A stretch of 56,408 bases of DNA, taken from a virus (taxonomy: Duplodnaviria; Heunggongvirae; Uroviricota; Caudoviricetes). A program made the translations under genes and the position numbers. The DNA lies in the IMG/VR virus record IMGVR_UViG_3300026549_002476. The stretch is one strand, 5' to 3'. Position 1 is the stretch's first letter. Each line of letters begins with the position of its first letter. Positions 6,411-22,779 of the stretch are shown piece after piece. The notes beneath the pieces are model-generated. The model did no database searches. It was not told the DNA's origin and saw only the letters and a list, made by a program, of their open reading frames with translations.

Positions 6411-6428
6411 TAAATATAGGTGTCCATT

Positions 6429-6470
6429 ATACATAAGTGAGTTAAGCATAAACAACTCACTTATGTATTT
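6429..6470 (+). terminator. Intrinsic terminator-like 15-bp inverted repeat
   Basis: ATACATAAGTGAGTT (6429-6443) / AACTCACTTATGTAT (6454-6468). Confidence 0.7.
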
Positions 6471-6492
6471 ACTTAGAAAGGATAGAATGGGT

Positions 6493-7281
6493 ATGAAGAA
6501 TAAGTTGGTTACAATTTTAATTGCAGGTTTAACTATTATAAGTGTGAGTGGTTGCAGTCTTAATTTAAAAGATGCTGGTGGGCCAGTATCAAAGCCTATT
6601 GAACAGATGACTAATTCTGAAAAAGATAGTTATGATACCAGTACAAGTGAATCAGATACCAGTACAAGTGAATCAGATACCAGTACAAGTGAATCAGATA
6701 CCAGTACAAGTGAATCAGATACTAATAAACTGATAGCCACTGGAGAATATTCAGATGTAGCTAAAAGTACTGAGTTTACACTAGATGGCAAGACAATAAC
6801 ACTTCCTGCTTCTGTATCAGACTTTGATGGTTTTAAGATTGATGATGAATCCGACACAACTACCTTAGGACACCTGGAAAGCAGGTCAGTTTTACTTAAA
6901 AATGACAGTGGAAAATCTATTTATATAAACATTATTAATGATTCAGATACTAAGCAGGTACAGGATATAGAAGACTGTACAGTGGTTGGGGTTGTTTTTA
7001 TTACAGACCTTGGGATTGATGAACTAGACGTAGAATATAACGGAATTACTCTCGGGGAATCTATTTATGATGTTGTAGATAAATTTGGAGAACCAACTAA
7101 AGTTTTTGATGGTTACAATGATTATAAAGCAATGAACTATGATCGTGGATATATTACATATGTATATCATTATGAGGATCCTTCAAATTGGATTCATTCA
7201 TATGATAATGAACTTAGCCTTGATATTGACAATGGCATAATTACTAGAATTGAATTAGAGACAGGTAATATTTATAAATGA
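6493..7281 (+). CDS. Lipoprotein with DTSTSES repeats, paralogous to ORF 4830 (start revised from 6463)
   Basis: MKNKLVTILIAGLTIISVSGC lipobox. Contains FTLDGKTITLPASVSDF...GITLGESIYDVVDKFGEP. The track start at 6463 lies inside the terminator hairpin. Confidence 0.75.
   Translation: MKNKLVTILIAGLTIISVSGCSLNLKDAGGPVSKPIEQMTNSEKDSYDTSTSESDTSTSESDTSTSESDTSTSESDTNKLIATGEYSDVAKSTEFTLDGKTITLPASVSDFDGFKIDDESDTTTLGHLESRSVLLKNDSGKSIYINIINDSDTKQVQDIEDCTVVGVVFITDLGIDELDVEYNGITLGESIYDVVDKFGEPTKVFDGYNDYKAMNYDRGYITYVYHYEDPSNWIHSYDNELSLDIDNGIITRIELETGNIYK
6634..6723 (+). repeat. In-frame 21-bp tandem repeat (4 perfect copies plus a partial one)
   Basis: Unit GATACCAGTACAAGTGAATCA, encoding DTSTSES. Confidence 0.95.
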
Positions 7282-7304
7282 CAAAGATTTAGCAGTGATA
7301 AGAC

Positions 7305-7439
7305 ATGAAAAAGAAGTTTCATACACATGATTGCATGAGTATTAAGAAAATAAAAGACAGTAATAAAGAAACATTTACAGGTTCAAGAGATACTTTGATG
7401 AGTGAAGGTTATGAACCTTACAGAGTTTGTAAGTCATAA
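7305..7439 (+). pseudogene. Degenerate Ada-metal-binding-like domain fragment (not in the ORF track)
   Basis: MKKKFHTHDCMSIKKIKDSNKETFTGSRDTLMSEGYEPYRVCKS matches the 'KKFH..C..VK......GSR..L...GY.PC..C' pattern, but one Cys is Tyr and no good RBS is present. Confidence 0.5.
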
Positions 7440-7493
7440 ATAGCCTGTAAAGAAATTAAAAGAACAGTTTAAAAATGACAAGGGGTATTAGTT

Positions 7494-10400
7494 ATGAAGG
7501 TTAGGGATCGAGTTAAAAAATTTTTTAGCTATCTAATGCTTAGCACTATGATTTTAAATCAACTTGTTCCAGTAAACGCCGCTGAGACTAATGGTGATCT
7601 ACAAAGTAGCCAAGTCACAGTTGATGTAAGAGTGGATTGGGTTGATGATGCTTGGAAGGATTCAGATGATAACAGTACAAATCGTCCTGACAGCATTAAT
7701 ATTCACATACACAATGGCGATGATACTATTGATGCAGAAGTAAAGGCATCTGATAACTGGACATACACCACAACAGTAGATAGTGATAATGGTTTAAGCA
7801 TAGATGAGGATGTTCCGGATCAGTACGAGTATAGTGGATACACAACAGAAAAGACTGATACTGGAATTTTATTTGTTTTAAATAATGCATTTATTCCAAA
7901 GACAACAAGTGTTACAGTATCAAAAACTTGGGATGATGAAGATCATCCAAAACAGCTAATCATAACTCTTGCAGGTTCAGACGGAAGCACTTATGATTAT
8001 ACACTAAGTGACGATGCCGGTTGGTCACATACATTTGAGAATCTTCCATATTGGAAAGATGGCCAAGTCATTGAGTACACATCAAAAGAATCTCTTACAG
8101 ACGATGAGAAAGATAAGTGGGTACTTGAAGATGGTGAATGGACTTCTTCAGAATCCAAAGAAGTTGAAGAGCATAATCCAAATATGAATTATGTTACTAT
8201 TAAAGGTACAAAGACTTGGGTTGATGATGATGAAGCAAATCGTCCATTAAGTATAACAGTTGATCTGTATGCAAATAATGAACCAGCTAAGGATGCTGCT
8301 GGGAATGAAATTAAACAGACAATATCAGCAGACAATGGTTGGTCTTATAAGTTTGCAGGACTTAATGAAACAGATGATAATGGAGTAATCAATTATACAG
8401 TAAGAGAAGATTCAACTCCAGATAATTACATTGTAAAGTATGATGGGTATAATATAATTAACATATATAAAGATGCAACTATTTCAATATCTGGTAAAAA
8501 AACTTGGGATGATAACAATGATCAAGATGGTAAGAGACCAGAAAGCACAAAAGTTTATGTAGTTGACTCTGAAGGTAATCAGGTTGGTGATAAGAAAACT
8601 ATTACAGCTAATGATGATTGGAGTTATACATTTGAAAATCTTCCAAAGTATAATGATAATGGTGACGAGATTAAGTATTCAATAGCTGAAGACAATATAG
8701 ATGGCTATACTACAGAGATTTCTGATTATAATATAACTAATAAGCATACACCAAGTACTTTAACAGTAACAGTTAATAAAACTTGGGATGATTCAAGCAA
8801 TGCAGATGATAGTAGACCTGAAAAAATAAATTTTGATTTGTATGCTGACACTGAAAAGATTGATACACAGACATTTGATGTTGATAGAACTTCTGACATT
8901 AGTATATATACATTTAAAGATGAAGATGGGGCAGCAAAGAATTATCCGGTTTACAAAGATGGTACAAAGATAAATTATAGCATTAAAGAAGAAGACACTG
9001 GTGGATATACTTCTACCATAGAAAAATCTGATCAATCAACAGAAAATAATATTATTTATGATGTAAATAATAAGCATGGAGTTGAGACAGTTAAAGTATG
9101 TGGTAAAAAGGTATGGGTTGATGGAAATAACACTGATGAAAAGAGACCAACAACTGTTACAATTAATCTTTTAAGAGATGGTACCAAGATTTCTTCTGTT
9201 AAAGTAGGTAGTGACAATACATTTGATTTTGGTGAGCTTCCTGCAAATTATGCAGGCAAGAAGGCAACATATAGCATCACTGAAAATGATATTGATAATT
9301 ATAAGTCTGCAATAGTTAAAAATGATGATGGTACATATACAGTTACAAATACTTATGTAGAGCCATTAAAAGTTAAGAAAGTCTGGGATGACGTTAGTAA
9401 TAAGGATGGTAAGAGACCAGACAGCATTGAGTTTAGGCTGTCAGTAAATAATGTAATTGGTGATAAGACTTACACAATGTCTAAACCAGATATTGAATTA
9501 GCTGGAAACAATAGCTGGGGAACCATTACACTTAAAGATGATGATAACAAGATAGAGTATTTCCCTGTATATGATACTGATGGAAATAAGATAGAGTATA
9601 GTGTAAAAGAAACAAATATAGATGGTTATAAAGCTATTGTAAATACTGAGGGTAATGTTATAACAATTAGAAATCAACATGAAACATCTGATGGAACAGT
9701 AAAAATTAGAAAGATTTGGAATGATTGTGATAATCATTGTAATTCTAGACCTAATAGCATAGAAATCCAAGCTTATACCTCTTCTGATGATTCTGAAAAA
9801 TATGGTGATCCAGTAAAAATAACAAAAGCAGAATTAGTTGACAAAAATGTTTGGGAGTATACATTTAATCTTAATAATGAAAATGATGTAATTAATCATT
9901 TTAAAGAAATTGAAGTTCCAAAGTATTATGATGTTGAGTATACTGGTTGGGATGATGATCATAAGGTATATACAATAACAGATAATATAAATCCTAGTAA
10001 GGTTCCGATATATGTAAGAAAATATTGGAATACAGATGAAAAATATGAACCAAGAAAAAAGGATGATGCATCTGATGAATTAAAAGCTACTAATGATTCA
10101 GTCACAATAGAATTCGACTACAGAAAAGATGCAGATTCTGAATATAAACATTATTCATATAAATTAACACCTGATACAAATTGGACTAGACTTGTAGGCA
10201 CAGATGAAGTTCAGATAGTTTGTAAGGATGGACAGCCATATATTGATGTAGCAAATATCAAAGAAGCTGAAGAAGACATTCTTAAGAAAGCTGGGTATAA
10301 GATTACTACATATACATCTTGTGATTTAAAGCAAGGTGCAGAAGGCGGTGGATTTTATATTACTGTTGAGAATAAGTATAAAGAAACAGTAGATATTAAT

Positions 10401-13400
10401 GTTAAGAAGATTTATAAATCTGTTGGAAGTACTTGTCCAACAGCAACATTTACATTAACTGCTGATGATAAGGTTGTAGATTCTTTTGTATATACAGGTT
10501 CTGATAATCGTAGTTATACATTTAAAGATCTTCCAAAATATAATGCAAATGGTAAAGAAATAGTATATGATGTAAATGAGAGCTGTGTAGATATAGCATC
10601 AACAATGATTAACAACACTGGTAAATTACAGAGTACATATACAACTTATAAAGAACGCAATGGAAACACATTCACATTTAAAAATATACAGAATTGCTGG
10701 TTGCAATTTCAAAAAGTGTTTGCAGCTCGTTATACAGTAGATAAGCCAACTGCTGTAGTATTTACAGTATATCATTATGATAATGGCAGTAAGAAGGTAG
10801 ATGGTAATGTAACAATTAATACTTCTGGAAATGGCCATGTATTTTATAATAAAGATCATTTGTTGAATCTACCAACTTTTGATAAGGATTTGAATCCTAT
10901 AATTTATTATGTATCAGAACAGCCAGTTAATAAGTGGTACTTAGATGGTTCTAATCCTTCAGATTCTGGTCAGTATATTGTACTAGGGTCTTTGGGGGGC
11001 CTGAGCAGATACATAAGTCTAGAAAATGGTTCTAATGTATGTGATGGAACAGGTTACCAATTAACAGTATATAAAGTTTGGGATGATGATCATAATGTTG
11101 TTGGAACAAGACCAGAAAGTATGAACGTTAATTATAAATATAAAGACTTATATTATGATGGCTATAAGAATTATGAAGATAAAGTATATAAAAGAAATGT
11201 ATATAGAAATAGTACATATAGTTCAGATGTTGAAGCTGTAAAATATCATTTTGATGTAAATGTTGATGCATCAGACCTTTGGGTATATAATGGTGGCTTT
11301 GGGGCTTCAACAAATTATCTCATGATACCAGATGTAAATGAGGAAGTTCCAGATGGATATATATTAGATAAAAAAATGTATAGAGTACAATTTAGCCCAA
11401 GATCTACATTCAGAGGTTCTAATGGTAATTATTATTATCAGGGTACATATTATGAAGACATTAATATAGCTCAAGAAGCTATAAATGCTGGTATAGGGTT
11501 AGGTTACGTGAGAGTAGAATGTCTGTTAATTAATAAACCAATTAAAAATTCTACTCATGTACACATTAGTAAATCTTGGAATACTGACAATAAAAATAAG
11601 ATACCAGAGAGTATAGGAGTTTCATTTATTGATTCAGATGGAAATATTAAAAAGCATATTGTATTAAGCAAAGACAGTAATTTTGCATATGACTTTTATA
11701 CTAGTAATGAAGATTATAACAAATATAAGAGTTATAATATCATAGAAGATTCTAATAATGATGGCATAGAAGATAAGCCTGATGGATTTAAATATGTAAC
11801 TTATCATCTAGAAGATGATCCAGATAAAAGCTCATATAATACAAAGCATGATTTATATTATTCTATAATTAACAGTGATACAAAAGCAGAAATTACAGAT
11901 ATAAGAGTTACAGTAAACAAAACTTGGGATGATGATAACAATAGAGATGGTTATAGACCAAAGAAGTTTAAAGTTAGTTTACAGGATTTGGATGGACATT
12001 CAATAGCTTCTAGTTATGATTATGGAGTAAAAGATGCTTCATATAACTTACATGTTAACTCATCAAAAAGTGGTTTCAATGTCGTAGAGGATTATGATAC
12101 ATCTGATAAGTATACAACAACAAAGAATATCAAAGCTAATAAAGATGCTGATGGAAATATAACTAGCTATACAGTTGATCTTAAGAATACTCACATACCA
12201 GAAAAAATTGATATTCATGTAGTTAAGCACTGGTCAGATAAAGATATCATTAAGACAAATAAAGAGTCAAAGACAGTTCGCTTGTATGCAGATGGTAAGT
12301 ATGTTAAAGATGGAAAGTTCACATACTATGAAGAGACTGGCGAGTGGGCAGTAGATTTCAATGATCTTTATAAATATCAAGATGGAAAGAAGATCAATTA
12401 CACTGTTGTTGAAGATGGTGCAAGTCATGTAAACAAGACCTTAACCAAGACGATTGTTAATCATAAGACTATTACATTCCCTGTTAAGAAGGAATGGATT
12501 GATGATAGCAATGTAGGTTTGATAAGACCTACATCAGTCACAGTTGGTTTGTTTAGAGAGGATCAAGAAAATCCGATAGCAACAGTAGAACTTAGTGATA
12601 CAAACAATTGGGAATATGAGTTTACTAAGGATTCTTCTGGAAATGCTCTTCTGAAGTATGATAACGGTACTAAAATTAAATATTATGCAAGGGAGTTGGA
12701 TTCTAAAGGTAAGCCGATTGAAGATGGTGCAATAAATGAAAGGTACAAAACAACTTATTCAGAAGATTCTAAGGTAATCACTAACAGTCTTGTTGGAAAT
12801 ATCAAAGTAACCAAGGTTTGGGATGATAATAATGATGAAAATAAGGAAAGACCTACATCAGTAAATATCAATCTTAAATCTGGTAATGATACAGTAGATA
12901 GCATTAAACTGAATAGTGATAACTGGTCTGGAGAGTTTAAGAATATTCCAATAGTTGATGAAAATAATAAATTGATTAAGTATACTGTTACAGAAGATGC
13001 TTTGAGCAATAGCAAGTATGAGTTGAAACAAACTACCGGTGATTCAATCAATGGATTTACTGTTGAAAACGGATATAAAGTTATTAAAGAAGACATATCC
13101 GGTGAAAAGACTTGGGATGATTTTGATGACTATGATAAGATAAGGCCGTCAGAAATTACAATTTACTTGTATAAAGTAGCCAGTGATTCAAAGATTGAAG
13201 TTGCACATCAGGTGGTTAAACCAAACAAAGATGGAAAGTGGCTGTATGATTTTGGTGAACAACCAGTATATGAAAATGGTAAAGAAATAACCTATAAGAT
13301 TGAAGATAGTGTAGATGGTTATGAATGTCATGCATCTAAAGGTTATGATATAGTTAATAAGCATACACCAGAGCACAAAGATACAAATATTAATAATAAA

Positions 13401-14681
13401 GTTACAGTAATTAAGATTGATGAAGATAATAATGTAATAACAAGCAAAGCTCAGTTTGGTTTATATGAAGATAAAGATTGTAACAACAAGATTTATGAGT
13501 TTGGTACTGAAAATGGTAAGTTTAATATCAGTACAGATGAACCAGTATTATTAAAGTATTTGCCAGAGTCAGAAGGTAAAGAAAATACACTTTATCTAAA
13601 AGAGATTGTAGCGCCTAAAGGATATGATATTAATAGTACAGTATTTGAAGTCAAACTTGGTATTAGCAAAGACACAACAGATAAGTTTAATACAAAACTG
13701 AATCATCTGATTACAATTAATGGTTCTAGTGAGCTAAGAGTTGTTGATAATAAACATATTGAACCAACAAAGCCTGCAACAAAGCCTGCAACAAATAATT
13801 CTACTGAACAAGCAAAGCCTGCAACAAATGATAGTAATGACAATGCATCTTATGCTTATTATACACCATCAGTTACGAAGACCGTGAATGGTTTAAAGCC
13901 TGGAGCTAATAAGTTTACATTTGTATTAACTGATAACTCTGGTAAGGAACTTGACAGAGTAACTAATGATGAAAATGGCATAGTAAAGTTTAAGACCATT
14001 ACTTATAGCAATTACAATGTAGGATCTAAATATATCTATAAGATTCATGAGATTATTCCAGATGGAACGAATGGATATGACAATCATACATATGTAATAA
14101 ATGTAACACCTAAGTGGTCTGATTCTGGTACATTTATGATTGAGACATCAACAGATGGTTATTCTAATTTCAATAATGTAATTCAGATTGATCCACAGTT
14201 CAAGTCAGTAACTGTTCAGAAGATTTGGAATGACAATAATGACCAGTATAAACAGAGACCTGAGGCAGTAAAAGTCCAGTTGTATGCAAATGGTCAACCT
14301 TGTGGTGATACGATTTATCTGAATGATGATAATAATTGGCAGTTTACATGGCCAAGCATTCCAAGCAATGATCTTGTTGGAACACCTTATAATTACACAG
14401 TAGCTGAGATTGATATACCTAAATATTATGATTCAGACGTAACTGGTGATGCAACAAGTGGATTTGTAGTAACTAATATATTTGATACTGATACTTATTT
14501 GATGAGCAACGAGAGTAATAATACAGATAACCCAAATGGTTCAGGTACAAATGATAATACAATTAACTTGAATGATTCAGATACTGGCGATAGTTCAAAA
14601 CTTGTAGATGAAACAATAATATTAATTGTAGCTCTTGCAGCTCTTGCATGTGTCCTATTTTATAAACGCAAGCATAAATAA
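7494..14681 (+). CDS. Giant Cna B-type repeat surface adhesin with SpaA-like and FctA-like domains and a sortase-type C-terminus
   Basis: Signal peptide and many 'K.W.D..N.DG.RP..I.V.L' repeats. SpaA-like IKIDED..A.FGLY..LKEIVAPKGY. FctA-like KFTFVL..TNDENGIVKF. Ends DSDTGD + hydrophobic helix + KRKHK. Confidence 0.85.
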   Translation: MKVRDRVKKFFSYLMLSTMILNQLVPVNAAETNGDLQSSQVTVDVRVDWVDDAWKDSDDNSTNRPDSINIHIHNGDDTIDAEVKASDNWTYTTTVDSDNGLSIDEDVPDQYEYSGYTTEKTDTGILFVLNNAFIPKTTSVTVSKTWDDEDHPKQLIITLAGSDGSTYDYTLSDDAGWSHTFENLPYWKDGQVIEYTSKESLTDDEKDKWVLEDGEWTSSESKEVEEHNPNMNYVTIKGTKTWVDDDEANRPLSITVDLYANNEPAKDAAGNEIKQTISADNGWSYKFAGLNETDDNGVINYTVREDSTPDNYIVKYDGYNIINIYKDATISISGKKTWDDNNDQDGKRPESTKVYVVDSEGNQVGDKKTITANDDWSYTFENLPKYNDNGDEIKYSIAEDNIDGYTTEISDYNITNKHTPSTLTVTVNKTWDDSSNADDSRPEKINFDLYADTEKIDTQTFDVDRTSDISIYTFKDEDGAAKNYPVYKDGTKINYSIKEEDTGGYTSTIEKSDQSTENNIIYDVNNKHGVETVKVCGKKVWVDGNNTDEKRPTTVTINLLRDGTKISSVKVGSDNTFDFGELPANYAGKKATYSITENDIDNYKSAIVKNDDGTYTVTNTYVEPLKVKKVWDDVSNKDGKRPDSIEFRLSVNNVIGDKTYTMSKPDIELAGNNSWGTITLKDDDNKIEYFPVYDTDGNKIEYSVKETNIDGYKAIVNTEGNVITIRNQHETSDGTVKIRKIWNDCDNHCNSRPNSIEIQAYTSSDDSEKYGDPVKITKAELVDKNVWEYTFNLNNENDVINHFKEIEVPKYYDVEYTGWDDDHKVYTITDNINPSKVPIYVRKYWNTDEKYEPRKKDDASDELKATNDSVTIEFDYRKDADSEYKHYSYKLTPDTNWTRLVGTDEVQIVCKDGQPYIDVANIKEAEEDILKKAGYKITTYTSCDLKQGAEGGGFYITVENKYKETVDINVKKIYKSVGSTCPTATFTLTADDKVVDSFVYTGSDNRSYTFKDLPKYNANGKEIVYDVNESCVDIASTMINNTGKLQSTYTTYKERNGNTFTFKNIQNCWLQFQKVFAARYTVDKPTAVVFTVYHYDNGSKKVDGNVTINTSGNGHVFYNKDHLLNLPTFDKDLNPIIYYVSEQPVNKWYLDGSNPSDSGQYIVLGSLGGLSRYISLENGSNVCDGTGYQLTVYKVWDDDHNVVGTRPESMNVNYKYKDLYYDGYKNYEDKVYKRNVYRNSTYSSDVEAVKYHFDVNVDASDLWVYNGGFGASTNYLMIPDVNEEVPDGYILDKKMYRVQFSPRSTFRGSNGNYYYQGTYYEDINIAQEAINAGIGLGYVRVECLLINKPIKNSTHVHISKSWNTDNKNKIPESIGVSFIDSDGNIKKHIVLSKDSNFAYDFYTSNEDYNKYKSYNIIEDSNNDGIEDKPDGFKYVTYHLEDDPDKSSYNTKHDLYYSIINSDTKAEITDIRVTVNKTWDDDNNRDGYRPKKFKVSLQDLDGHSIASSYDYGVKDASYNLHVNSSKSGFNVVEDYDTSDKYTTTKNIKANKDADGNITSYTVDLKNTHIPEKIDIHVVKHWSDKDIIKTNKESKTVRLYADGKYVKDGKFTYYEETGEWAVDFNDLYKYQDGKKINYTVVEDGASHVNKTLTKTIVNHKTITFPVKKEWIDDSNVGLIRPTSVTVGLFREDQENPIATVELSDTNNWEYEFTKDSSGNALLKYDNGTKIKYYARELDSKGKPIEDGAINERYKTTYSEDSKVITNSLVGNIKVTKVWDDNNDENKERPTSVNINLKSGNDTVDSIKLNSDNWSGEFKNIPIVDENNKLIKYTVTEDALSNSKYELKQTTGDSINGFTVENGYKVIKEDISGEKTWDDFDDYDKIRPSEITIYLYKVASDSKIEVAHQVVKPNKDGKWLYDFGEQPVYENGKEITYKIEDSVDGYECHASKGYDIVNKHTPEHKDTNINNKVTVIKIDEDNNVITSKAQFGLYEDKDCNNKIYEFGTENGKFNISTDEPVLLKYLPESEGKENTLYLKEIVAPKGYDINSTVFEVKLGISKDTTDKFNTKLNHLITINGSSELRVVDNKHIEPTKPATKPATNNSTEQAKPATNDSNDNASYAYYTPSVTKTVNGLKPGANKFTFVLTDNSGKELDRVTNDENGIVKFKTITYSNYNVGSKYIYKIHEIIPDGTNGYDNHTYVINVTPKWSDSGTFMIETSTDGYSNFNNVIQIDPQFKSVTVQKIWNDNNDQYKQRPEAVKVQLYANGQPCGDTIYLNDDNNWQFTWPSIPSNDLVGTPYNYTVAEIDIPKYYDSDVTGDATSGFVVTNIFDTDTYLMSNESNNTDNPNGSGTNDNTINLNDSDTGDSSKLVDETIILIVALAALACVLFYKRKHK

Positions 14682-14783: not shown

Positions 14784-15296
14784 ATGAGTACATATTTTAT
14801 AATGGCTAGACTTTATAAAGATAATAAACTTAGTAGATATAGATTATTCAATATGAATAGAAATAGAATAAAAGATGTTGACTTAGATTATGTAAAAATT
14901 AACATAGATAACATTGTAAATGCTAGAATCTATAATGATGATATACATATAAATGGCGAAAATACTTATAGATTTCCAAATATAAACAATGGAATTATTG
15001 AGGCAAGCAATAGAAATAAATTATTCGTGTTCAGAGTATATAGAAATAAACATAAGAATTACTTAATTGACTGTGTAACATTGGGAGGGGCAGTTTTAAG
15101 TTTAGCATCATATGACATTGATTACTTAAATAAACATAATTTTGTAAATGTTGATATAATTGATGGAGAAGTCATAAGCCGTGAAGATAATTCTTTTGTA
15201 TTAAGAAGAACTTTTGATAAGACTTGGCTTGAAAGATTGAAGCTTAGACTAAATAAGAATGGACATAAGGAAGATAAGAGTAAAAATAAAGTATAA
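14784..15296 (+). CDS. Hypothetical protein, probably two divergent copies of the recurrent ~65-aa domain
   Basis: YFIMARLYKDNKLSRYRLFN...NIVNARIYND and KLFVFRVYRNK...NFVNVDIIDG. Confidence 0.65.
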   Translation: MSTYFIMARLYKDNKLSRYRLFNMNRNRIKDVDLDYVKINIDNIVNARIYNDDIHINGENTYRFPNINNGIIEASNRNKLFVFRVYRNKHKNYLIDCVTLGGAVLSLASYDIDYLNKHNFVNVDIIDGEVISREDNSFVLRRTFDKTWLERLKLRLNKNGHKEDKSKNKV

Positions 15297-15355
15297 GCAT
15301 ACAAATTAGCCATTTAATTAAATTTTGATATATTTAAAAAATAGGAGGTTGTCCT

Positions 15356-15700
15356 ATGGGGAATATATTCGGCAGAGATAATAATGGCAGACCATTTACA
15401 GGGAATGTGTATAATGGAAATGTGACATATTGCAGCGATGGAAATACGATGTACAATCATGGAAATGTGACATATTGTAGTGATGGCAACACTATGTGCA
15501 ATTATGGAAATACCTCTTATATGAATAATGGCGTAACTATCTATAAATCTGGAAACATGTATTTTTGTAATGGAAAAACATATCATAAAGTTGGAAACAC
15601 TTTATTTGGATCAGATGGAAGTGAAATACATGGGTATAGTATGTCAGATCAAGATGTAAGAAATATGATCTTTAGTATGAACAATAGAAAGGAGCGTTAA
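15356..15700 (+). CDS. Gly/Asn/Tyr-rich short-repeat protein
   Basis: AGGAGG RBS. GNVTYCSDGNTM occurs twice with a 15-aa period, followed by degenerate GN/G.T.Y repeats. Confidence 0.75.
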   Translation: MGNIFGRDNNGRPFTGNVYNGNVTYCSDGNTMYNHGNVTYCSDGNTMCNYGNTSYMNNGVTIYKSGNMYFCNGKTYHKVGNTLFGSDGSEIHGYSMSDQDVRNMIFSMNNRKER

Positions 15701-15701
15701 G

Positions 15702-15944
15702 ATGTCATATTTTATAAAATTCGACATGGTAAATAAAACAAAAGCCAAAAGATTGTTTAACGAGGGCAAAGATGTTTGGATCCTTCCAAGTAATATGAGA
15801 ATTGACAATATCTGGATTCAGCCAGCATTGCTAAATAAGAAAAACGGCGTTGATTTCGATACACTAGTCAATGGATACATGTACTATAACTGTAATAATG
15901 AAACTGGAAAAAACGTACATTATTTTGTAGAGTCACAAAAGTAA
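15702..15944 (+). CDS. Small phage-type conserved hypothetical protein
   Basis: AAGGAG RBS. FDTLVNGYMYYNCNNETG..V.YFV resembles a motif I recall from small phage proteins. Confidence 0.65.
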   Translation: MSYFIKFDMVNKTKAKRLFNEGKDVWILPSNMRIDNIWIQPALLNKKNGVDFDTLVNGYMYYNCNNETGKNVHYFVESQK

Positions 15945-15977
15945 GTACATTAAATATTAGATAAGCAGGTAATTAAA

Positions 15978-17288
15978 ATGCAAGCACATGCGAATAAAGC
16001 AATCAAAAATAACAATAAAATCATTGGTTATGAAATTACAGATGGTAAGAGTACAATGAGCATTAATACTCAAGCTATCTTAAATGTTATGAAAGCTGGA
16101 AAGATTACTTTTGATAACTTGCATATTGATGCTAGTGGAACTAACCTTGTAATGGATATACCAGAAGATCAGAAGAAGTTAACTGACGAACTTAATAAAG
16201 CCAGAGAGGTTTATGAGCAAGGTACAGACGAGATAATGCCAAACAGAGAGTATGATGCTAAATATGATCAGCTCAAAGAAATGGAAAAGAAGTCTGGTAT
16301 CATTGCAAAAGATAGTCCTACAGTTAATGTTGGTTATTCAACTTCTGGATCTAAGCTTCAGAAATACACATTTAAAACACCAATGTTAAGCCTTGAAAAA
16401 ACAAAATCAGTTGATGATCTTAAAACTTTCATTGGAAATCAGAATTGTGTTTTATCAACTAAAATGGATGGTTTAACTGTCGTTCTTCAATATATGAATG
16501 GACAGTTGTACAGAGCAATCACTCGTGGAAATGGTGAAGTTGGAGAAATCGTTACAGAAAATGCCAAGAGATTTGTGAATGTGCCACAGAAGATCAATTA
16601 CACTGGCAAGATGGTTCTTCGCGGTGAAGCTGTTATTAAGTACAGTGACTTTGAAAAGTTAAATGTAGACGGAGCTTATAAGAATCCTCGTAACTTATGT
16701 AGTGGTTCTGTAAGACAGTTGGATCCGAATGTTACAGCAAGTAGAAAAGTAAATTGGTTTTGTTTTGATCTGGTAGAAGCTGATGGGATGCCAAGTAGCA
16801 TAACTTATCATCAACAGTTGGATTTCTTAAAGAGCCTAGGGTTTAGTGTTGTTCCGCATACCTTTGTAAATGCATCAACAGTAGATCAGCAAGTGATAAA
16901 TTTTACTACACTCGTTAAAGCAGACGATATTCCTGCTGACGGATTGGTTATAAAGTATGACAATATAGCATATGGACTTGGACTTGGTAGGACAGCTAAA
17001 GCTCCTAAATATGCAATTGCATTTAAGTGGGAAGATGGACTTAAGGAATCTGAGTTAATAGATATAGTTTGGCAGGTTGGACGTACTGGAAAAATTACAC
17101 CAGTAGCAGTATTCAAGCCAGTAGAAATTGAAGGAAGTATCGTTCAGAGAGCAAGCTTACATAATTTAAGTATGTTGAATGAAATACTTGGACAGCCATA
17201 TGTTGGTGAGAAAGTTTATATATACAAAGCCAACATGATAATTCCTCAGATAGCACAAGCTGATAGAAAGGCAGACTTAAGATTTTAA
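15978..17288 (+). CDS. ligA: NAD-dependent DNA ligase, N-terminal half (extra N-terminal domain + Ia + adenylation + OB fold)
   Basis: EYD..YD.L (Ia), KMDG (adenylation Lys), AITRGNG.VGE.VT, RGE, NPRN..GSVRQLD, DGLVIK, AIAFK, WQVGRTGKITPVA, ASLHN, KANMIIPQI. Stops before the Zn finger. Confidence 0.92.
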   Translation: MQAHANKAIKNNNKIIGYEITDGKSTMSINTQAILNVMKAGKITFDNLHIDASGTNLVMDIPEDQKKLTDELNKAREVYEQGTDEIMPNREYDAKYDQLKEMEKKSGIIAKDSPTVNVGYSTSGSKLQKYTFKTPMLSLEKTKSVDDLKTFIGNQNCVLSTKMDGLTVVLQYMNGQLYRAITRGNGEVGEIVTENAKRFVNVPQKINYTGKMVLRGEAVIKYSDFEKLNVDGAYKNPRNLCSGSVRQLDPNVTASRKVNWFCFDLVEADGMPSSITYHQQLDFLKSLGFSVVPHTFVNASTVDQQVINFTTLVKADDIPADGLVIKYDNIAYGLGLGRTAKAPKYAIAFKWEDGLKESELIDIVWQVGRTGKITPVAVFKPVEIEGSIVQRASLHNLSMLNEILGQPYVGEKVYIYKANMIIPQIAQADRKADLRF

Positions 17289-17384
17289 AATAGCATTTTG
17301 ATTTGTAATCCTATAGATTGATTATAACTTATAAGATGATTATAATTTCATAAGAAAATAATTCAATCTAGGGAGAAAACCAAA

Positions 17385-18227
17385 ATGCATAAACATTTTA
17401 CTAAAACATCTTTAACTATATTGCCGTTAGTTGCAGCTATAACATTTTCACCTATTACTGCAAGTGCACATTCAAAAGTAATGCCAGATGGCGGTAGATT
17501 TGATGCAACATTTTATGCTGCAACTTATCCAGATGTAAAGGCAGCATTTGGAACTAATGAAAATTTACTTTATCAGCATTATTTAAACAACGGAAAAAAG
17601 GAAGGCAGACTTCCATATGATCCAAAAGAAACATCTAGTGGCTCGGTGTCAGATGATGGATTTGATCCAGTTTATTATGCACAAGCAAACCCAGATGTGG
17701 TTAAAGTATTTGGAAACAGTCCTGAAGCCCTATATAATCATTATTTAAAATATGGAAAAGCTGAGGGAAGACTTCCACATGCAAATTCCAGTTCTGTAAG
17801 TAATACAACCACAACTACAACTACTACTACTGATGTATCAAGCAAGATATTAGCTTTAAAGAGTCAGTATCCAGAAGGAATGCCATGGAGTGATCAAAGT
17901 TACACGGTTACTCTTATTAAGTCTTTGAATTTAACCGGTCTACAGTGTGCTGGGTTTGCATTTAGGATAAGCAACTTAGTTTATGGAGAAGATGCACCAG
18001 CAACTTGGTATCAAAGTTCATTAAGTTTTGATAATATACAGCCTGGTGATGCAATTAATATAGGAAACTCAGCTGGTGGTAGACATTGGGTAATGGTTAT
18101 AAGTAAAGATGCAAACGGAGTAACAGTTTGTGAAGGCAATTATAATGCATCGGTTCATTGGGGAAGATACATAACTAAGAGTTATATAAACTCAGGGTTG
18201 TACGAGATTATAAGACGAAATGGATAA
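17385..18227 (+). CDS. Secreted CHAP/NlpC-like cysteine hydrolase with two N-terminal 'FD..YYA..PDV' repeats
   Basis: Signal peptide ending ASA. Repeats FDATFYAATYPDV..HY..GKKEGR and FDPVYYAQANPDV..HY..GKAEGR. Thr-rich linker. Catalytic-type QCAGFA, RHWVMV, CEGNY. Confidence 0.7.
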   Translation: MHKHFTKTSLTILPLVAAITFSPITASAHSKVMPDGGRFDATFYAATYPDVKAAFGTNENLLYQHYLNNGKKEGRLPYDPKETSSGSVSDDGFDPVYYAQANPDVVKVFGNSPEALYNHYLKYGKAEGRLPHANSSSVSNTTTTTTTTTDVSSKILALKSQYPEGMPWSDQSYTVTLIKSLNLTGLQCAGFAFRISNLVYGEDAPATWYQSSLSFDNIQPGDAINIGNSAGGRHWVMVISKDANGVTVCEGNYNASVHWGRYITKSYINSGLYEIIRRNG

Positions 18228-19014
18228 CTTTAGCGTTGAATGCGTAAAGATTCTATATGACGAATACAACGGCAATTATGTTTATAAGCTGAGAAATGAA
18301 GAATCAAAAACAGCTCGTATGTCAGCTGACTATTTAAAAAGAGGCATTAAAAGAAACCTAATAGAAGTAACTAATCTGACTTTTGATAAGGATGATAACC
18401 TTATATTTAAATTTTTTGCTGATAAAAGGAATAGTTTTGAACGATCCATTACTAATTCCAAAACAGTAATTACAAGGGATTTGGTACGAAGTATGGATTG
18501 TGAAAAGGCATTAAGATTTGAGGTATACAAAGATAATTATATTTACACATGCATAAACAAAGCTAAATTCCTTGGCATAGATGCAATAGAGATTGAGGAT
18601 GACAAGAGATATAAAATATATGCATTAGATAAACCGAATGAAATACTGGTCATATCGAATAAAGAGCTTATAGTGCCAAATAAAGCAGATTATTTATTTT
18701 CAGAATCTCGCTTTGCAAGTATAGATTTAAGAAATACAGACATGACTGAGATAATGTCTACATATTGTATGTTTCAAAACAGTAAAGCTAAAAATATAAA
18801 CTTAAGCACTTTTGATGGGCATAATTTACTAGATGCTCAGAGAATGTTTTTAAATTCAGAAGCAGAGTTTATAGATTTAAGCAGTTTTAATATAAATAGA
18901 ATATCTAAAATACTGATATTAGACGGGCCATGTGAAGAAGGGATATACTATAATTGTGATGCTAAAGTCAAGTTAAAAGATAGAGTAGCACAGTTTAATG
19001 ATTTAAGAAATTAA
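18220..19014 (+). CDS. Recurrent N-terminal domain fused to BspA/DUF285-like leucine-rich repeats
   Basis: N-region ends IKRNLIEVTNLTFDKDDNLI. C-region ADYLFSES...IDLRN.D...MF.NS.AK.INLSTFD...MF.NSEAEFIDLSSF. Confidence 0.65.
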   Translation: MDNFSVECVKILYDEYNGNYVYKLRNEESKTARMSADYLKRGIKRNLIEVTNLTFDKDDNLIFKFFADKRNSFERSITNSKTVITRDLVRSMDCEKALRFEVYKDNYIYTCINKAKFLGIDAIEIEDDKRYKIYALDKPNEILVISNKELIVPNKADYLFSESRFASIDLRNTDMTEIMSTYCMFQNSKAKNINLSTFDGHNLLDAQRMFLNSEAEFIDLSSFNINRISKILILDGPCEEGIYYNCDAKVKLKDRVAQFNDLRN

Positions 19015-19021
19015 TTATTAC

Positions 19022-19059
19022 AAGAGCTAACATTAAAATTAGTGTTAGCTCTTATTTTT
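19022..19059 (+). terminator. Intrinsic terminator
   Basis: AAGAGCTAACA / TGTTAGCTCTT followed by ATTTTT. Confidence 0.75.
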
Positions 19060-19370
19060 GCTATATAGCATTAGAGTAATAATCAATAAATTTTATAAAA
19101 ATTTTAGAGTATAAAAACTCCGTATATGTGTTGAACAGTGTATATTAAAGGGTGAATAAAAATATAAGCTAAAGTGATTTAAAATCTAGTATACAATAAT
19201 AAAATTTAATTATGCTCTATATATTTCTCAGCTTAATTTTGATTTGTATATATTTAGTTAATTTATCATTGATGCTAAAAGATGCTGTACTTATAGTGAA
19301 AATTGAAATTACTTAGGGTAAAAATTAGGTATACATATTAATTTGAGATATACATAAGGAAAGAGCTATA

Positions 19371-19649
19371 ATGAGCTTTGCAAAACCAACATTTAAACAA
19401 GATATATTAACAGATATATTTGGATCATCATTAGGTAATGATAAATCTACCACATTCACTCCACAAAAGACAGTGAGTGACATGGTTGATCTAATTCTTC
19501 CATGGAATGCAGACCATGAATGTTTTAGGTCTACTGATCAAACATTTAGTGAAAAATTAAATAATGGTGGGAGTGTCAAGCAGTACAACACATTAAAATA
19601 CCAAAAATATATAATTAGTTGTAATTTAGATTTAATTATTTTTATATAA
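19371..19649 (+). pseudogene. Truncated fragment of an Eco57I/type IIG-like methyltransferase N-terminal region
   Basis: FTPQKTVSDMVDLI......F....TF resembles the 'FTP..V..M.D.L...TF.(D/E)P..G.G' segment, then diverges before motif I and ends at 92 aa. Confidence 0.5.
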
Positions 19650-19663
19650 ACAGAGGTAATTAT

Positions 19664-19969
19664 ATGAGAACATCTGAATTAATAAGTAAACTTAAAGAAG
19701 CTGAATGTAATAATAAGGAAGCACATATAGTTGCATACAAAGACAAAACATGGGAAATTACTGTTGAACGGCATCCATATGGTATGATTCGTATGTGGGT
19801 TTCCTATGAATATTCCAGTGGTGCATATAATGCCAGTTTGGTTACTTATGTGAAAGATCCGAATACAAAAGCAGTTAAATTGTTTACTGACTTTGTATTA
19901 AAGAAAGCAGTTAAAGATAGAGCAATCGAGATATGGCGTGCAATAGATAAAGCTGGTTTAATCAGATAA
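19664..19969 (+). CDS. Hypothetical protein
   Basis: 101-aa ORF with GAGG RBS. No family recognised. Confidence 0.65.
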   Translation: MRTSELISKLKEAECNNKEAHIVAYKDKTWEITVERHPYGMIRMWVSYEYSSGAYNASLVTYVKDPNTKAVKLFTDFVLKKAVKDRAIEIWRAIDKAGLIR

Positions 19970-19986
19970 CAAGGGGTATAAGCTTT

Positions 19987-20625
19987 ATGAAGAGAGTACA
20001 ATGCATAGAAACTGATAAAGTTTTTGAGTCTGTTAAGCAAGCAGCTGAGACTTATGGCATATCTGAGAATTCAGTTTATAGAGCATGTAAAACTGGTGGA
20101 TATGTATTAAGCAATAAAATGCCAAAATATGTATTAGATGCTATTGGCAACTGGAATGAAAAACAACCTATAGGTCAGAGAGTGCCATTACATTTTACTT
20201 ATGGAAATGCTGGGTATGAAATGAAGGTGCCTATGAACATCAAAGTAAAGTGCATAGAGACTGGTGATGTATTCAAAAATATAGATTATGCAGCTGCTGC
20301 CATTGGTTCAACTGTTCCTAATTTGTATTGGAGCATAATATTTGGTGAGGAAGCTTGCAATTTTAAGAGTAATAATCCAATGTTTAGGAAATTAACCTTT
20401 AAGTTTATGGTTGAAGATAATTCACGTGATCCAGTTGACCTTCCAGATTGGCATTCAATACCTGGGTATGAAAGATTACTCATGAATAAAGATCATGAAA
20501 TTTATGATTCTAAAACTAGAGCATATATAAAGCCAAGATACTCAGCAAAATTAAAATGTAACGTAATAAGTTTAATGGGTGTAGAAATTCCAGTCAACAA
20601 GCTTATAAATGGGAGATCCAGATGA
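19987..20625 (+). CDS. Homing-endonuclease-related DNA-binding protein (2x NUMOD1-like + NUMOD4-like), with no nuclease motif seen
   Basis: KRVQCIETDKVFESVKQAAETYGIS and KVKCIETGDVFKNIDYAAAAIG. C-terminal WHSIPGYE.L.MN....IY...T...IKP. No HNH or GIY-YIG motif visible. Confidence 0.65.
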   Translation: MKRVQCIETDKVFESVKQAAETYGISENSVYRACKTGGYVLSNKMPKYVLDAIGNWNEKQPIGQRVPLHFTYGNAGYEMKVPMNIKVKCIETGDVFKNIDYAAAAIGSTVPNLYWSIIFGEEACNFKSNNPMFRKLTFKFMVEDNSRDPVDLPDWHSIPGYERLLMNKDHEIYDSKTRAYIKPRYSAKLKCNVISLMGVEIPVNKLINGRSR

Positions 20626-20647
20626 AATCAATTATGACTATGATAGA

Positions 20648-20697
20648 TTGATGACTAACCGCCGCACACTCATGACTTTAGTCATGTGAGGCTTCAC
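20648..20697 (+). mobile_element. 45-bp IS200/IS605-like end remnant (PATE-like scar)
   Basis: TTGAT, then GACTAACCGCCGCACACTC-ATGAC-TTTA-GTCAT-GT-GAG-GC-TTCAC. A GC-rich bulged hairpin ending in TTCAC, standing out from the AT-rich background. Confidence 0.5.
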
Positions 20698-20716
20698 AAA
20701 TAGGAGTAAATTAAAA

Positions 20717-21562
20717 ATGGAAGTTAAGATGCTAGCAATTCCAAGAACTTGTCCAGCTTGTGGACAGCCAACTACAGTATATCAAGATCCAAACAGTGGT
20801 GTTTTAACTTTATACTGTGGGAATCCAAATTGTCCAGCAAAGGGAAATAGAATTCTTGAGCATTTTGTAGCAAGAGATGCCATGAATATTGAAGGTATAA
20901 GCTCTTCTACATTAAATACATTTGTAGAAATGGGGTTCATAACTGATTTTGTATCTATCTTTCATCTTGATAGATATGCAGAGGAAATCACATATTTACC
21001 TGGATTTGGAGTAAAGTCCTATAATAATATCTTAGCAGCTGTAGATAAAGCCCGTAATGTAAAAATATCAAATTTAATATATGCATTAGGTATTCCGAAT
21101 ATTGGTTTAGCAACTGCTAAGTTAATTTGTAAATCATTTAATTATGATGTTGTAAGAATTTTAAATGCTGAATACGATGAACTTGCAGAAATACCTGGAA
21201 TTGGTGGAGTTGTAGCCAGTAATTTTGTTGAATACTTTGCTGATCCAGTTAATCAAAGAGAAGTTACAGATTTACTCAAAGAGGTAAATATTCAACCAGA
21301 GAAACAAGATGTCGATGCATCTATGAGTAGTTTGACTTTCTGTGTTACTGGAGATGTTTATATATTTCCTAATAGGCGAGCTGTCAAAGATTATATTGAA
21401 TCACATGGTGGCAAGCTGACAGGATCAGTTAGCAGAAGTACAAGTTATCTCATTACAAATGACACAACATCTGGGAGCAATAAAAATAAAGCTGCTCAGA
21501 AATATGGCATTCCAATTTTGTCAGAGCAGGATTTCATAAAGAAGTTTAACATAAAGTTCTAA
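20717..21562 (+). CDS. ligA: NAD-dependent DNA ligase, C-terminal half (C4 Zn finger + HhH + BRCT)
   Basis: Own RBS (TAGGAG 20701-20706). CPACG...YCGNPNCPAK, AMNIEGI, LPGFGVKS, ALGIPNIG, IPGIGGVVA, and BRCT TFCVTG...GGK..GSVS..TSYLI...SNKNKAAQKYGIPILSEQDF. Confidence 0.92.
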   Translation: MEVKMLAIPRTCPACGQPTTVYQDPNSGVLTLYCGNPNCPAKGNRILEHFVARDAMNIEGISSSTLNTFVEMGFITDFVSIFHLDRYAEEITYLPGFGVKSYNNILAAVDKARNVKISNLIYALGIPNIGLATAKLICKSFNYDVVRILNAEYDELAEIPGIGGVVASNFVEYFADPVNQREVTDLLKEVNIQPEKQDVDASMSSLTFCVTGDVYIFPNRRAVKDYIESHGGKLTGSVSRSTSYLITNDTTSGSNKNKAAQKYGIPILSEQDFIKKFNIKF

Positions 21563-21578
21563 AAGAATAGGAGCAATT

Positions 21579-22103
21579 ATGAACGCAGCTTATTATATAG
21601 ATGATGTAGCAGCTAATGATCTATTGAAAGCTATAATGCCAACAGTGGAAAGCAATATGTCTAATGTACAGGACTTGCTATTTGGAAATGACTTATATAA
21701 GATTTCTGTTATTGTAGCTGACGATGTTAATGGATCTTGCATAGATATGGCATTTGACTCACACTTAGAGATGTATCCTAGTACATATGGTGATTTATAC
21801 TGTGTTATGTCAATGCCAACTAATAGTGATGGTGTTGAAAAGTTGGAAATTGTGCTCCCAGCAGCGATAGCTAATAATACAATCTTAGCATATACAGTTT
21901 ATATTGAGCTACTTCGCTTTTATGGATTTTATAATAACTTCTGGTATTTGATGCTTACTAATAGAGATAGCTATGGTGTCAATAGAAATGTTGCCGCCTG
22001 CTATTTAACTACAAATGAGAACAATATTTGGAAGATTATATCTAGTGAAATAGTCATACCAGATAGAAGTGTAGCATTTGATCCATATCATACAGGCAAG
22101 TAA
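21579..22103 (+). CDS. Hypothetical protein
   Basis: 174-aa ORF with AGGAG RBS. Confidence 0.65.
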   Translation: MNAAYYIDDVAANDLLKAIMPTVESNMSNVQDLLFGNDLYKISVIVADDVNGSCIDMAFDSHLEMYPSTYGDLYCVMSMPTNSDGVEKLEIVLPAAIANNTILAYTVYIELLRFYGFYNNFWYLMLTNRDSYGVNRNVAACYLTTNENNIWKIISSEIVIPDRSVAFDPYHTGK

Positions 22104-22122
22104 GTTTGGAGGTGTATCAAAG

Positions 22123-22779
22123 ATGATATATGCTAGATACAGTGCCAAAACAGAAGAATTAGATAAAACATTATATTTTGTTAATAAATACATTGAAGAT
22201 GAATCTGGTGAAAGAGTTGAAGATAGTTCAACAGGTAGTATAATTTGTTATGCAAGTAAGGAACTTTTATTAAGTGATATATTCCAATTAAAGATTATTC
22301 TTGACAATTGTAAGTTAGGAATGACAATGGATTTTATTCAAGTTGATCCAGATGAAGAAAAAGAACTTATGAAGAATCATTTGAGCCAGCTTGAAAATGA
22401 AATTACAAGCACTAATAATGAAGTTGATATAGAGAATAGATTCCATGATACATTTGGTGGGATAAGTGATATAAAATATAATAATATTAAGATTGGTGAA
22501 ATTTCAATAGAAACAATGCCACAGAAAGATACTTACAGATTAATTGCTGAATTAGCTAACAAAAAAGGATATGCAGACAGAAGGGCTTGTACTATATCTC
22601 CAATGGGTATAACAGATGCATATGATGATATGATTGAACTGTTTGAAGATGCTGATCTTGAAGGAATTTCAAAGATCGCTGATGGGTATAAAGAACGCAT
22701 GAAAGAAGAAGAACTTAAAGAGAAAAAGAAGCGTGAAGAATTAAGTAGGTCAGACTTCATGAGCGAGATGGGTTTATAA
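22123..22779 (+). CDS. Hypothetical acidic protein (start revised from 22078)
   Basis: GGAGG at 22108-22112 precedes the ATG at 22123. Confidence 0.65.
   Translation: MIYARYSAKTEELDKTLYFVNKYIEDESGERVEDSSTGSIICYASKELLLSDIFQLKIILDNCKLGMTMDFIQVDPDEEKELMKNHLSQLENEITSTNNEVDIENRFHDTFGGISDIKYNNIKIGEISIETMPQKDTYRLIAELANKKGYADRRACTISPMGITDAYDDMIELFEDADLEGISKIADGYKERMKEEELKEKKKREELSRSDFMSEMGL

Follow-up and report, generated by a model that had tools for sequence, protein, structure and literature searches.

The question raised by this locus is whether a DNA ligase that is encoded in two widely separated pieces still operates as one enzyme. The stretch analysed, termed the window in the following, comprises all 56,408 nucleotides of IMG/VR virus record IMGVR_UViG_3300026549_002476 (Caudoviricetes). 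It contains two open reading frames (ORFs) that each resemble a part of NAD-dependent DNA ligase (LigA) and that are separated by a gap of 3,428 bp (17289-20716):

15978-17288, + strand: LigA-N, 436 amino acids (aa), the N-terminal half (N-half), assigned via Pfam, PHROG 3869, PDB entry 2owo and a 10-member alignment

20717-21562, + strand: LigA-C, 281 aa, the C-terminal half (C-half) with C4 zinc finger, HhH and BRCT domains, assigned via Pfam, PHROG 3869 and 2owo

The sequences point to one working NAD-dependent ligase that is probably made as two polypeptides, mobile DNA having presumably split its gene in the linker between OB fold and zinc finger (OB-Zn linker). A naturally heterodimeric ligase had already been proposed in a first-pass annotation of this DNA, and the proposal gains support from conserved residues, purifying selection, congruent trees, recurrence of the split in relatives and the existence of a two-chain structure of the T5-like type.

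Taken together, the two ORFs amount to exactly one full LigA of which no part is absent or duplicated. On the profile of the full-length phage ligase phrog_3869 (656 positions), the N-half occupies positions 6-383 and the C-half positions 387-654, while residues 28-389 and 401-667 of the Escherichia coli enzyme (2owo) are aligned by the N- and the C-half, respectively. As the two ORFs tile a single LigA, the cut must reside in the short linker between OB fold and zinc finger, at about residues 390-400 of E. coli LigA. The domain assignment in the first-pass annotation, with Ia, adenylation domain and OB fold on the one side and zinc finger, HhH and BRCT on the other, is borne out by Pfam, phrog_3869 and 2owo.

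LigA-N starts with an extra N-terminal domain of ~60 aa (15978-16160, residues 1-60), continues with domain Ia, the nucleotidyltransferase (NTase) domain and the OB fold and ends with a stop inside the OB-Zn linker. DNA_ligase_aden (PF01653) matches residues 126-352 with an expectation value (E) of 7.4e-53, above the family cut-off, and DNA_ligase_OB (PF03120) matches residues 358-430 (E 2.3e-22). The closest protein relatives sharing the extra N-terminal domain comprise ten that consist of an N-half only and about as many of full length. In the ten N-only relatives, K162-x-D164-G165 and many other residues are invariant, and the K-x-D-G, which contains the motif I lysine of nucleotidyltransferases, aligns to that of 1v9p. 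Domain Ia yields a weak precomputed PF22745 match only; LigA chains in the PDB align from LigA-N residue 65-85 on, starting at chain residues 8-30. Y79, Y92 and D93, which we take from E. coli mutagenesis to be the domain Ia residues that matter, are invariant in the clade. The extra domain is found in split as well as unsplit clade members and is followed there by a variable linker of 0-40 residues. LigA-N is also ~54% identical to metagenome LigA proteins of 655 aa, some of them on contigs >1 Mb, which are most likely cellular. As a separate observation, K326 (in D-G-L-V-I-K) aligns to a lysine of Thermus filiformis LigA; the window has K here, but T, A or R occupies the position in several of its close relatives, whether these are split or unsplit. 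These substitutions are unexpected because the E. coli equivalent presumably contacts adenine.

LigA-C opens with the zinc finger (C-x2-C...C-x4-C). Its four cysteines, C12, C15, C34 and C39, are invariant in 15 of 15 C-halves, and the Pfam zinc finger model stays below its cut-off (E 0.006). HHH_2 (PF12826, residues 120-181, E 6.3e-15) and BRCT (PF00533, residues 204-273, E 4.7e-12) follow. The gene has a ribosome-binding site of its own, AGGAG at 20702-20706, 10 nt 5' of an ATG that lies just before the C4 zinc finger, as the first-pass annotation had noted. The same annotation had seen LigA-N end soon after IIPQI, and it does, with 11 residues by our count in place of the ten given there.

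A contig into which two genomes or strains have been wrongly joined could mimic a split gene. The probability of such an artefact is negligible, and we found no point in its favour. Six other contigs from six runs carry an N-half that is two residues off that of the window and have the same ORFs downstream of it; L005, a contig of 81.7 kb, extends to the C-half as well. In two further cattle-gut runs (X2 and X5), DNA contigs bridge both 17288 and 20717. Since independent assemblies span both junctions, misassembly is ruled out, and the earlier concern about support across the interval is settled by contigs from at least eight other runs. The window is AT-rich (~31% GC) and its composition is uniform across the ligase region.

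Two intact genes need not mean two proteins. Introns, inteins and bypass elements are well known in phage genes, and the halves could in principle be rejoined by a spliced intron, by trans-splicing, by a split intein or by ribosomal bypass. In an alignment of the junctions of nine split and 63 unsplit ligases, the N tail of 11 residues after IIPQI and the C head of ~10 residues before C-P-x-C add up to the linker length of the unsplit relatives. With tail and head forming a normal linker, there is no room for intein halves, in agreement with the earlier statement that intein motifs are lacking. A search of 15000-22500 against Rfam at E up to 1 returned no family, group I and II introns included. 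The gap contains, as first described, five ORFs and a terminator-like hairpin (19022-19053), all five ORFs being on the + strand, and the C-gene has its own ribosome-binding site and start. Two RNA libraries yielded contigs without differences from the window that map to the N-half, to gap ORFs and to the C-half, and none of them joins N to C. Rejoining is therefore very improbable. As DNA carry-over is possible, the RNA-library contigs are a hint of expression only; some parts, such as 19084-19755 in X16, are without contigs, which is no evidence of silence.

Do the halves stem from one ligase? Both retrieve the same best relatives, and separate N and C trees agree in placing the window with the unsplit ligase P0003 (support 98/92), L096 with L024 (100/99) and L031 with L049 (100/98); the same 13-member clade appears in the N and the C tree (98 and 100). 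The congruence of the trees implies that the halves derive from one ligase, so that the origin from unrelated ligases considered in the first-pass annotation does not apply. An uninterrupted counterpart is present in a syntenic relative, L097, which encodes an unsplit sister ligase of 718 aa. The ligase gene is followed there, in this order, by homologues of the genes downstream in the window, encoding a ~180-aa protein, a NERD protein, a class A penicillin-binding protein, a ~500-aa protein and an AAA ATPase. L097, being colinear, thus represents the 'empty site'.

Both halves are under purifying selection. Compared with L005, the N-half exhibits 11 synonymous and 2 non-synonymous changes and a ratio of non-synonymous to synonymous substitution rates (dN/dS) of 0.05, the C-half 8 synonymous and 3 non-synonymous changes and a dN/dS of 0.10, all based on small counts. 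Two gap ORFs are less constrained in the same comparison (0.56 for 18220-19014 and 0.40 for 19987-20625). Comparisons of four diverged split relatives, in which synonymous sites are close to saturation, gave dN/dS values of 0.07-0.20 for either half, and in no case was the C-half more relaxed than the N-half. The relaxed selection on either half that the first-pass annotation had considered is thus not seen. These values bear on the idea that the two genes are decaying remains of a ligase inactivated by insertion, with host LigA doing the work. Decay would fit the large size of the insertion, the turnover of its content from strain to strain and a host LigA, which presumably exists. Yet both ORFs are intact in all strains seen, the low dN/dS holds even between split relatives that are only 69-80% identical in protein, the catalytic and zinc-binding residues are invariant, and lytic T5-like phages retain the same split in their hundreds. 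We regard decay as improbable.

The same split recurs in relatives, as a survey of the kind proposed in the first-pass annotation brought to light. The ten N-only relatives all end 8-12 residues past I-I-P-x-I, and 5 of 80 IMG/VR loci, representing three lineages, have their split in the same linker. The content of the gap differs:

L091 and L092: NUMOD4-HNH endonuclease

L096: homing endonuclease of 590 aa (phrog_3339, E 6e-73)

L002, 11437-11961: HAD_SAK_2 phosphatase

L003 and L004 (L003 11400-12170): microbial PARG (ADP-ribose glycohydrolase family)

L099: intact IS200/IS605 element (Y1 transposase and TnpB) plus two small ORFs

L031 (IMG/VR): NUMOD4-HNH_3 endonuclease

L066 (IMG/VR): Endonuclease VII/HNH-like gene

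L078, L079 and L081 (IMG/VR; L079 11069-11855): MNT-HEPN pair

The MNT-HEPN pair is likely a toxin-antitoxin module. Whether the position of PARG next to an NAD-using ligase is a coincidence may be asked. One further IMG/VR locus, L056, has a single in-frame stop (10891-10895) in an otherwise unsplit ligase that is intact in the close relative L045; the stop could be a sequencing error, a pseudogene mutation or a recoded stop.

Split and unsplit genes are interleaved on the trees, the nine split rows requiring nine changes. Among the relatives sampled, at least six or seven gains or losses of the split are forced by well-supported branches. With the junction columns excluded, uniting the five split genes in the window's clade as one group is rejected by the approximately unbiased (AU) test (log-likelihood difference 304, p 6e-48); this group was defined after the first tree had been seen. 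The closest relative of the window is the unsplit P0003/P0004 (98/92 in quick trees, 100/98 in the careful tree). An older split common to both would follow if L099 were the sister of the window, a placement that was considered and is unsupported.

The sequence around the break offers a clue to how the split may spread. L096 is 90% identical to the unsplit L024 over the 250 residues before the junction tract, the next best relative reaching 66%, whereas its last 90 N-half residues are 88-89% identical to those of the split L003/L091 and only ~50-67% to L024. Similarly, identity between L031 and L049 drops locally to 30-57% at the junction and is 80-97% elsewhere. Such a pattern would be expected from gene conversion that moves the insert together with the adjacent OB tract, in the manner of homing endonucleases, and we infer such transfer for L096 and L031. 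The window itself gives a weak signal of a flanking tract carried with the insert. L002 and the unsplit P0010 have a colinear linker without a local drop in identity, which indicates that simple insertion or precise loss occurs too.

Two proteins from one ancestral ligase do not necessarily act together. It is conceivable that the C-protein serves as a free BRCT scaffold binding DNA or nicks and that the N-protein is a self-adenylating or NAD-using protein in its own right, with full ligation taking place only when both are made, or never. Such separate roles or separate regulation would be in keeping with the terminator-like hairpin and the consensus promoter-like sites between the halves. 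The promoter scan gave 34 sites against 35 expected by chance, a chance-level count that is uninformative on separate promoters. Moreover, the N and C trees are congruent, the halves are similarly constrained, and every other split relative examined keeps both genes within 0.5-4.3 kb on the same strand.

A predicted complex may also speak for joint action. When N-half residues 62-436 and the C-half were modelled, the complex scored 0.65 compared with 0.00 for the best of three controls. Of 80 solved complexes, 58 attained this mark, as did 2 of 110 mismatched pairs; these counts are rough guides here, since the modelling relied on our own alignments. The runs agree in at least 72% of contacts, the partner has a predicted local distance difference test (pLDDT) value of at least 81, and the OB-Zn interface, between OB residues 360-410 plus 434-436 and C-half residues 3-43, is confidently predicted. 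As full-length LigA and a T5-type heterodimer have already been solved, the score may reflect a known fold that the model reproduces; it would signify likeness and not binding of these particular copies. The complex modelling suggested in the first-pass annotation thus yields the OB-Zn interface as a prediction.

Several observations weigh against a two-polypeptide ligase at this locus. We know of no published reconstitution of an NAD-dependent ligase from two polypeptides. Given a distance of 3.4 kb and the terminator-like hairpin within it, stoichiometric co-expression is not assured. The N-half gene P0016 (463 aa; L093 3724-5115, L094 8001-9392) is without a C-gene within 8 kb downstream, so that an N-half may sometimes stand alone, which would also suit separate roles. 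In the window, the gap is without a nuclease gene, and the cause of the split is therefore deduced from relatives. From a biochemical perspective, the Ia-NTase-OB fragment of LigN, truncated C-terminally, self-adenylates and does not ligate, again in line with separate roles, and an attempt at reconstitution failed when the C-fragment could not be expressed (PMC1684257). In intact LigA, domain Ia and NTase react with NAD+, the zinc finger positions HhH against OB, and the HhH domain closes the clamp on nicked DNA (PMC7470946). On balance, separate roles appear unlikely, and we consider a heterodimeric ligase the better reading. It may be added that P0016 deviates from the consensus of the clade at some positions that are conserved elsewhere, and a partner gene may be located at a greater distance.

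A direct precedent for a ligase in two subunits is provided by phage T5, in which ligA (T5.116) and ligB (T5.117) are ~200 bp apart and cut in the same OB-Zn linker. The stretch spanning both is matched by 445 T5-like records, and 40 sampled T5-like rows are annotated with two DNA ligase genes, about a third of them as 'subunit A/B'. In PDB entries 9HU3/9I5I, a chain named 'DNA ligase (NAD(+))' is accompanied by a second one, 'DNA ligase subunit B', and the two match T5 LigA and LigB at E 8e-104 and 3.8e-80; our literature search found no paper on 9HU3/9I5I or on a heterodimeric NAD ligase. As in the window, the two T5 genes lie on one strand and encode the same domains on each side of the break, the T5 N-terminus being shorter. 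The T5 N-protein stops 7 residues past IP-x-I and the C-protein begins 8 residues before C-P-x-C, and both halves are conserved in hundreds of genomes (PHROG 3359 and 3498). T5 differs in its position in both trees, where it sits on a very long branch apart from all the other ligases. The window halves score 345 and 212 bits on phrog_3869 versus 161 and 146 bits on the half families, and the 9HU3 chains are absent from the PDB matches of the window at E 1e-20 (N) and 1e-10 (C). Furthermore, only promoters are located between the T5 genes, in contrast to 3.4 kb with five ORFs, a hairpin and an insertion sequence scar in the window, and the extra ~60-aa N-terminal domain is a feature of the window's clade. 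Given the distant long branch of T5 and the unsplit nearest relative of the window, the split in the window is independent of that in T5. The T5 genes had not been taken into account in the first-pass annotation, and the novelty of the locus is lowered a good deal by them.

The precedent that annotation did cite is nrdA of Aeromonas phage Aeh1, in which nrdA-a is separated from nrdA-b by the free-standing homing endonuclease gene mobE and the product is active as two polypeptides (Crona et al. 2011, PMC3045599). Both cases concern an essential phage gene for DNA metabolism that is split by mobile DNA with short new tails at the break, and an uninterrupted allele exists in a related genome (L097). 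The comparison is apt insofar as four related split loci (L031, L066, L091 and L096) harbor a homing endonuclease gene exactly at the break and flanks move with the insert. It differs in the enzyme and in that function of the pieces and tails has been demonstrated for NrdA. For the window itself the precedent falls short: its gap holds no recognisable endonuclease, only DNA-binding modules of the homing endonuclease type and a scar of IS200/IS605 type. Two gene halves with mobile DNA between them are likewise seen in 'fractured genes' (Dassa et al. 2009, PMC2677866), which feature split inteins and have a free-standing endonuclease gene at the break, but the break in the window lacks intein halves. 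As the product remains in two pieces, assembly must be non-covalent. Compared with the single-chain enzymes of E. coli (2OWO) and T. filiformis (1V9P/1DGS), all six domains, their order and the catalytic motifs are kept, the difference being two polypeptides in the window instead of one.

The element that carries the split genes is known from cattle-gut metagenomes of 13 studies. All but one of the ORFs of at least 170 aa in the window are on the + strand. PHROG and Pfam searches with most of the other window ORFs matched no phage structural genes, and the status of the element as a phage is based on IMG/VR relatives. DNA-level relatives among phages and plasmids were limited to short ~72% matches confined to the ligase, and a tRNA scan found none. 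The gap between the ligase halves is composed as follows:

17385-18227, + strand: ORF of 280 aa, N-terminus resembling a signal peptide, internal repeats, no family match

18220-19014, + strand: ORF of 264 aa, weak match to DUF285/BspA-type repeats

19022-19053, + strand: terminator-like hairpin with a 14-bp stem, a 4-nt loop and a T run, from a consensus scan only

19371-19649, + strand: ORF of 92 aa, no family match, within a stretch that is swapped in other strains

19664-19969, + strand: ORF of 101 aa, no family match

19987-20625, + strand: ORF of 212 aa with two short helix-turn-helix (HTH) modules, from BLASTP and phrog_4538

20648-20698, + strand: TTGAT and, after it, a hairpin element of ~45 bp whose end is 3 nt short of the LigA-C ribosome-binding site, from comparison with the ends of the L099 insertion sequence

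The last of the five ORFs, at 19987-20625, may be an endonuclease remnant. Its HTH module corresponds to the C-terminal module of the HNH homing endonucleases in related split loci, with BLASTP matches to the L031 endonuclease (E 6e-6 and 0.015) and the L091 endonuclease (E 2e-4). It is matched by positions 400-433 of phrog_4538, a family that the L091 endonuclease matches too. Pfam offers weak HTH/NUMOD1 matches only (NUMOD1 E 0.16), and Pfam and PHROG searches detected no nuclease domain in any of the five gap ORFs. Homologues of the ORF at 19664-19969 are sited elsewhere in related contigs (L003 19983-20852, L091 10785-11105), and the product of the ORF at 17385-18227 varies between 192 and 280 aa depending on the strain. 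L005 is colinear with the window at ~98% identity, and ~800 bp extra replace 19571-19626 there; in a contig of run X5, 19182-19630 is replaced. With these replacements inside the gap, the ligase halves are stable while the content between them turns over.

The hairpin element in front of LigA-C is, as judged by its similarity to L099, a miniature or scar of an IS200/IS605-family element. Positions 20663-20686 match the left end (L099 2446-2469) and positions 20674-20700 the right end (L099 4363-4389), each at 96% identity, of an intact element that encodes TnpA (Y1_Tnp) and TnpB (OrfB_IS605) and is situated between the ligase halves of L099. In three cattle-gut runs, 20648-20698 reaches depths tens to hundreds of times those of its flanks, and contigs continue from it into several different flanks. 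Excess depth, several flanks and the end matches to L099 indicate that at least one IS605-type element once resided in this slot. L005 has three substitutions in the 6-bp stem of the hairpin element, pairing being retained only as G-U, in RNA. The hairpin at 20667-20688 has an ordinary fold energy (z -0.66), and an exact search of IMG/VR for it gave no match.

Variation between strains is also seen at some distance from the ligase genes. L005 is without a stretch located at 4830-14681 in the window (L005 1240-1624) that contains a gene for a surface protein of 2,395 aa (7494-14681) and two upstream ORFs, and a 373-aa Cna_B/FctA protein is encoded at the surface-protein site in L007 (872-1993).

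The following course of events would account for the locus. Mobile DNA may have landed in the flexible linker between OB fold and zinc finger. After this insertion, the N-gene, coding for Ia-NTase-OB, would have ended at a new stop, and Zn-HhH-BRCT would have been encoded by a C-gene that has a start and a ribosome-binding site of its own. Judging from LigA biochemistry, the N-protein would self-adenylate with NAD+ and the C-protein would act as the DNA clamp. The two would meet through the contact between OB fold and zinc finger that is intramolecular in ordinary LigA, and nicks would be sealed by the heterodimer, as presumed for T5-like phages. The gap would since have served as a tolerated landing site at which homing endonucleases, an IS200/IS605 element and cargo genes come and go. 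A more general proposal goes beyond the window, and we advance it tentatively, as a possibility that is somewhat doubtful at present. The OB-Zn linker could be a 'safe harbour' for unrelated mobile DNA, i.e. HNH and other homing endonucleases, IS200/IS605 TnpA-TnpB, MNT-HEPN, PARG and HAD phosphatase. The junction together with the last ~90 OB codons would pass between the ligases of huge phages by gene conversion, and the split allele would be a portable carrier of cargo and not a one-off accident. A less probable addition to this proposal would be that the phage times its ligase activity by means of the terminator between the halves.

That an NAD ligase can consist of two subunits has already been established in principle by T5 and PDB 9HU3/9I5I, and the ligase in the window is an independently arisen member of this known class of two-subunit phage NAD ligases. 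It stands out by the wide separation of its halves and by documenting that several kinds of mobile DNA have landed in the linker repeatedly. A six-domain ligase apparently tolerates a cut at one specific hinge, and phages arrive there repeatedly. This may be of use for split-ligase engineering, and annotators should not call such halves pseudogenes. Ligase genes that are unsplit, endonuclease-split, IS-split and cargo-split would form a natural series for studying how selfish DNA colonises essential genes and how its site of entry may become a slot for accessory genes.

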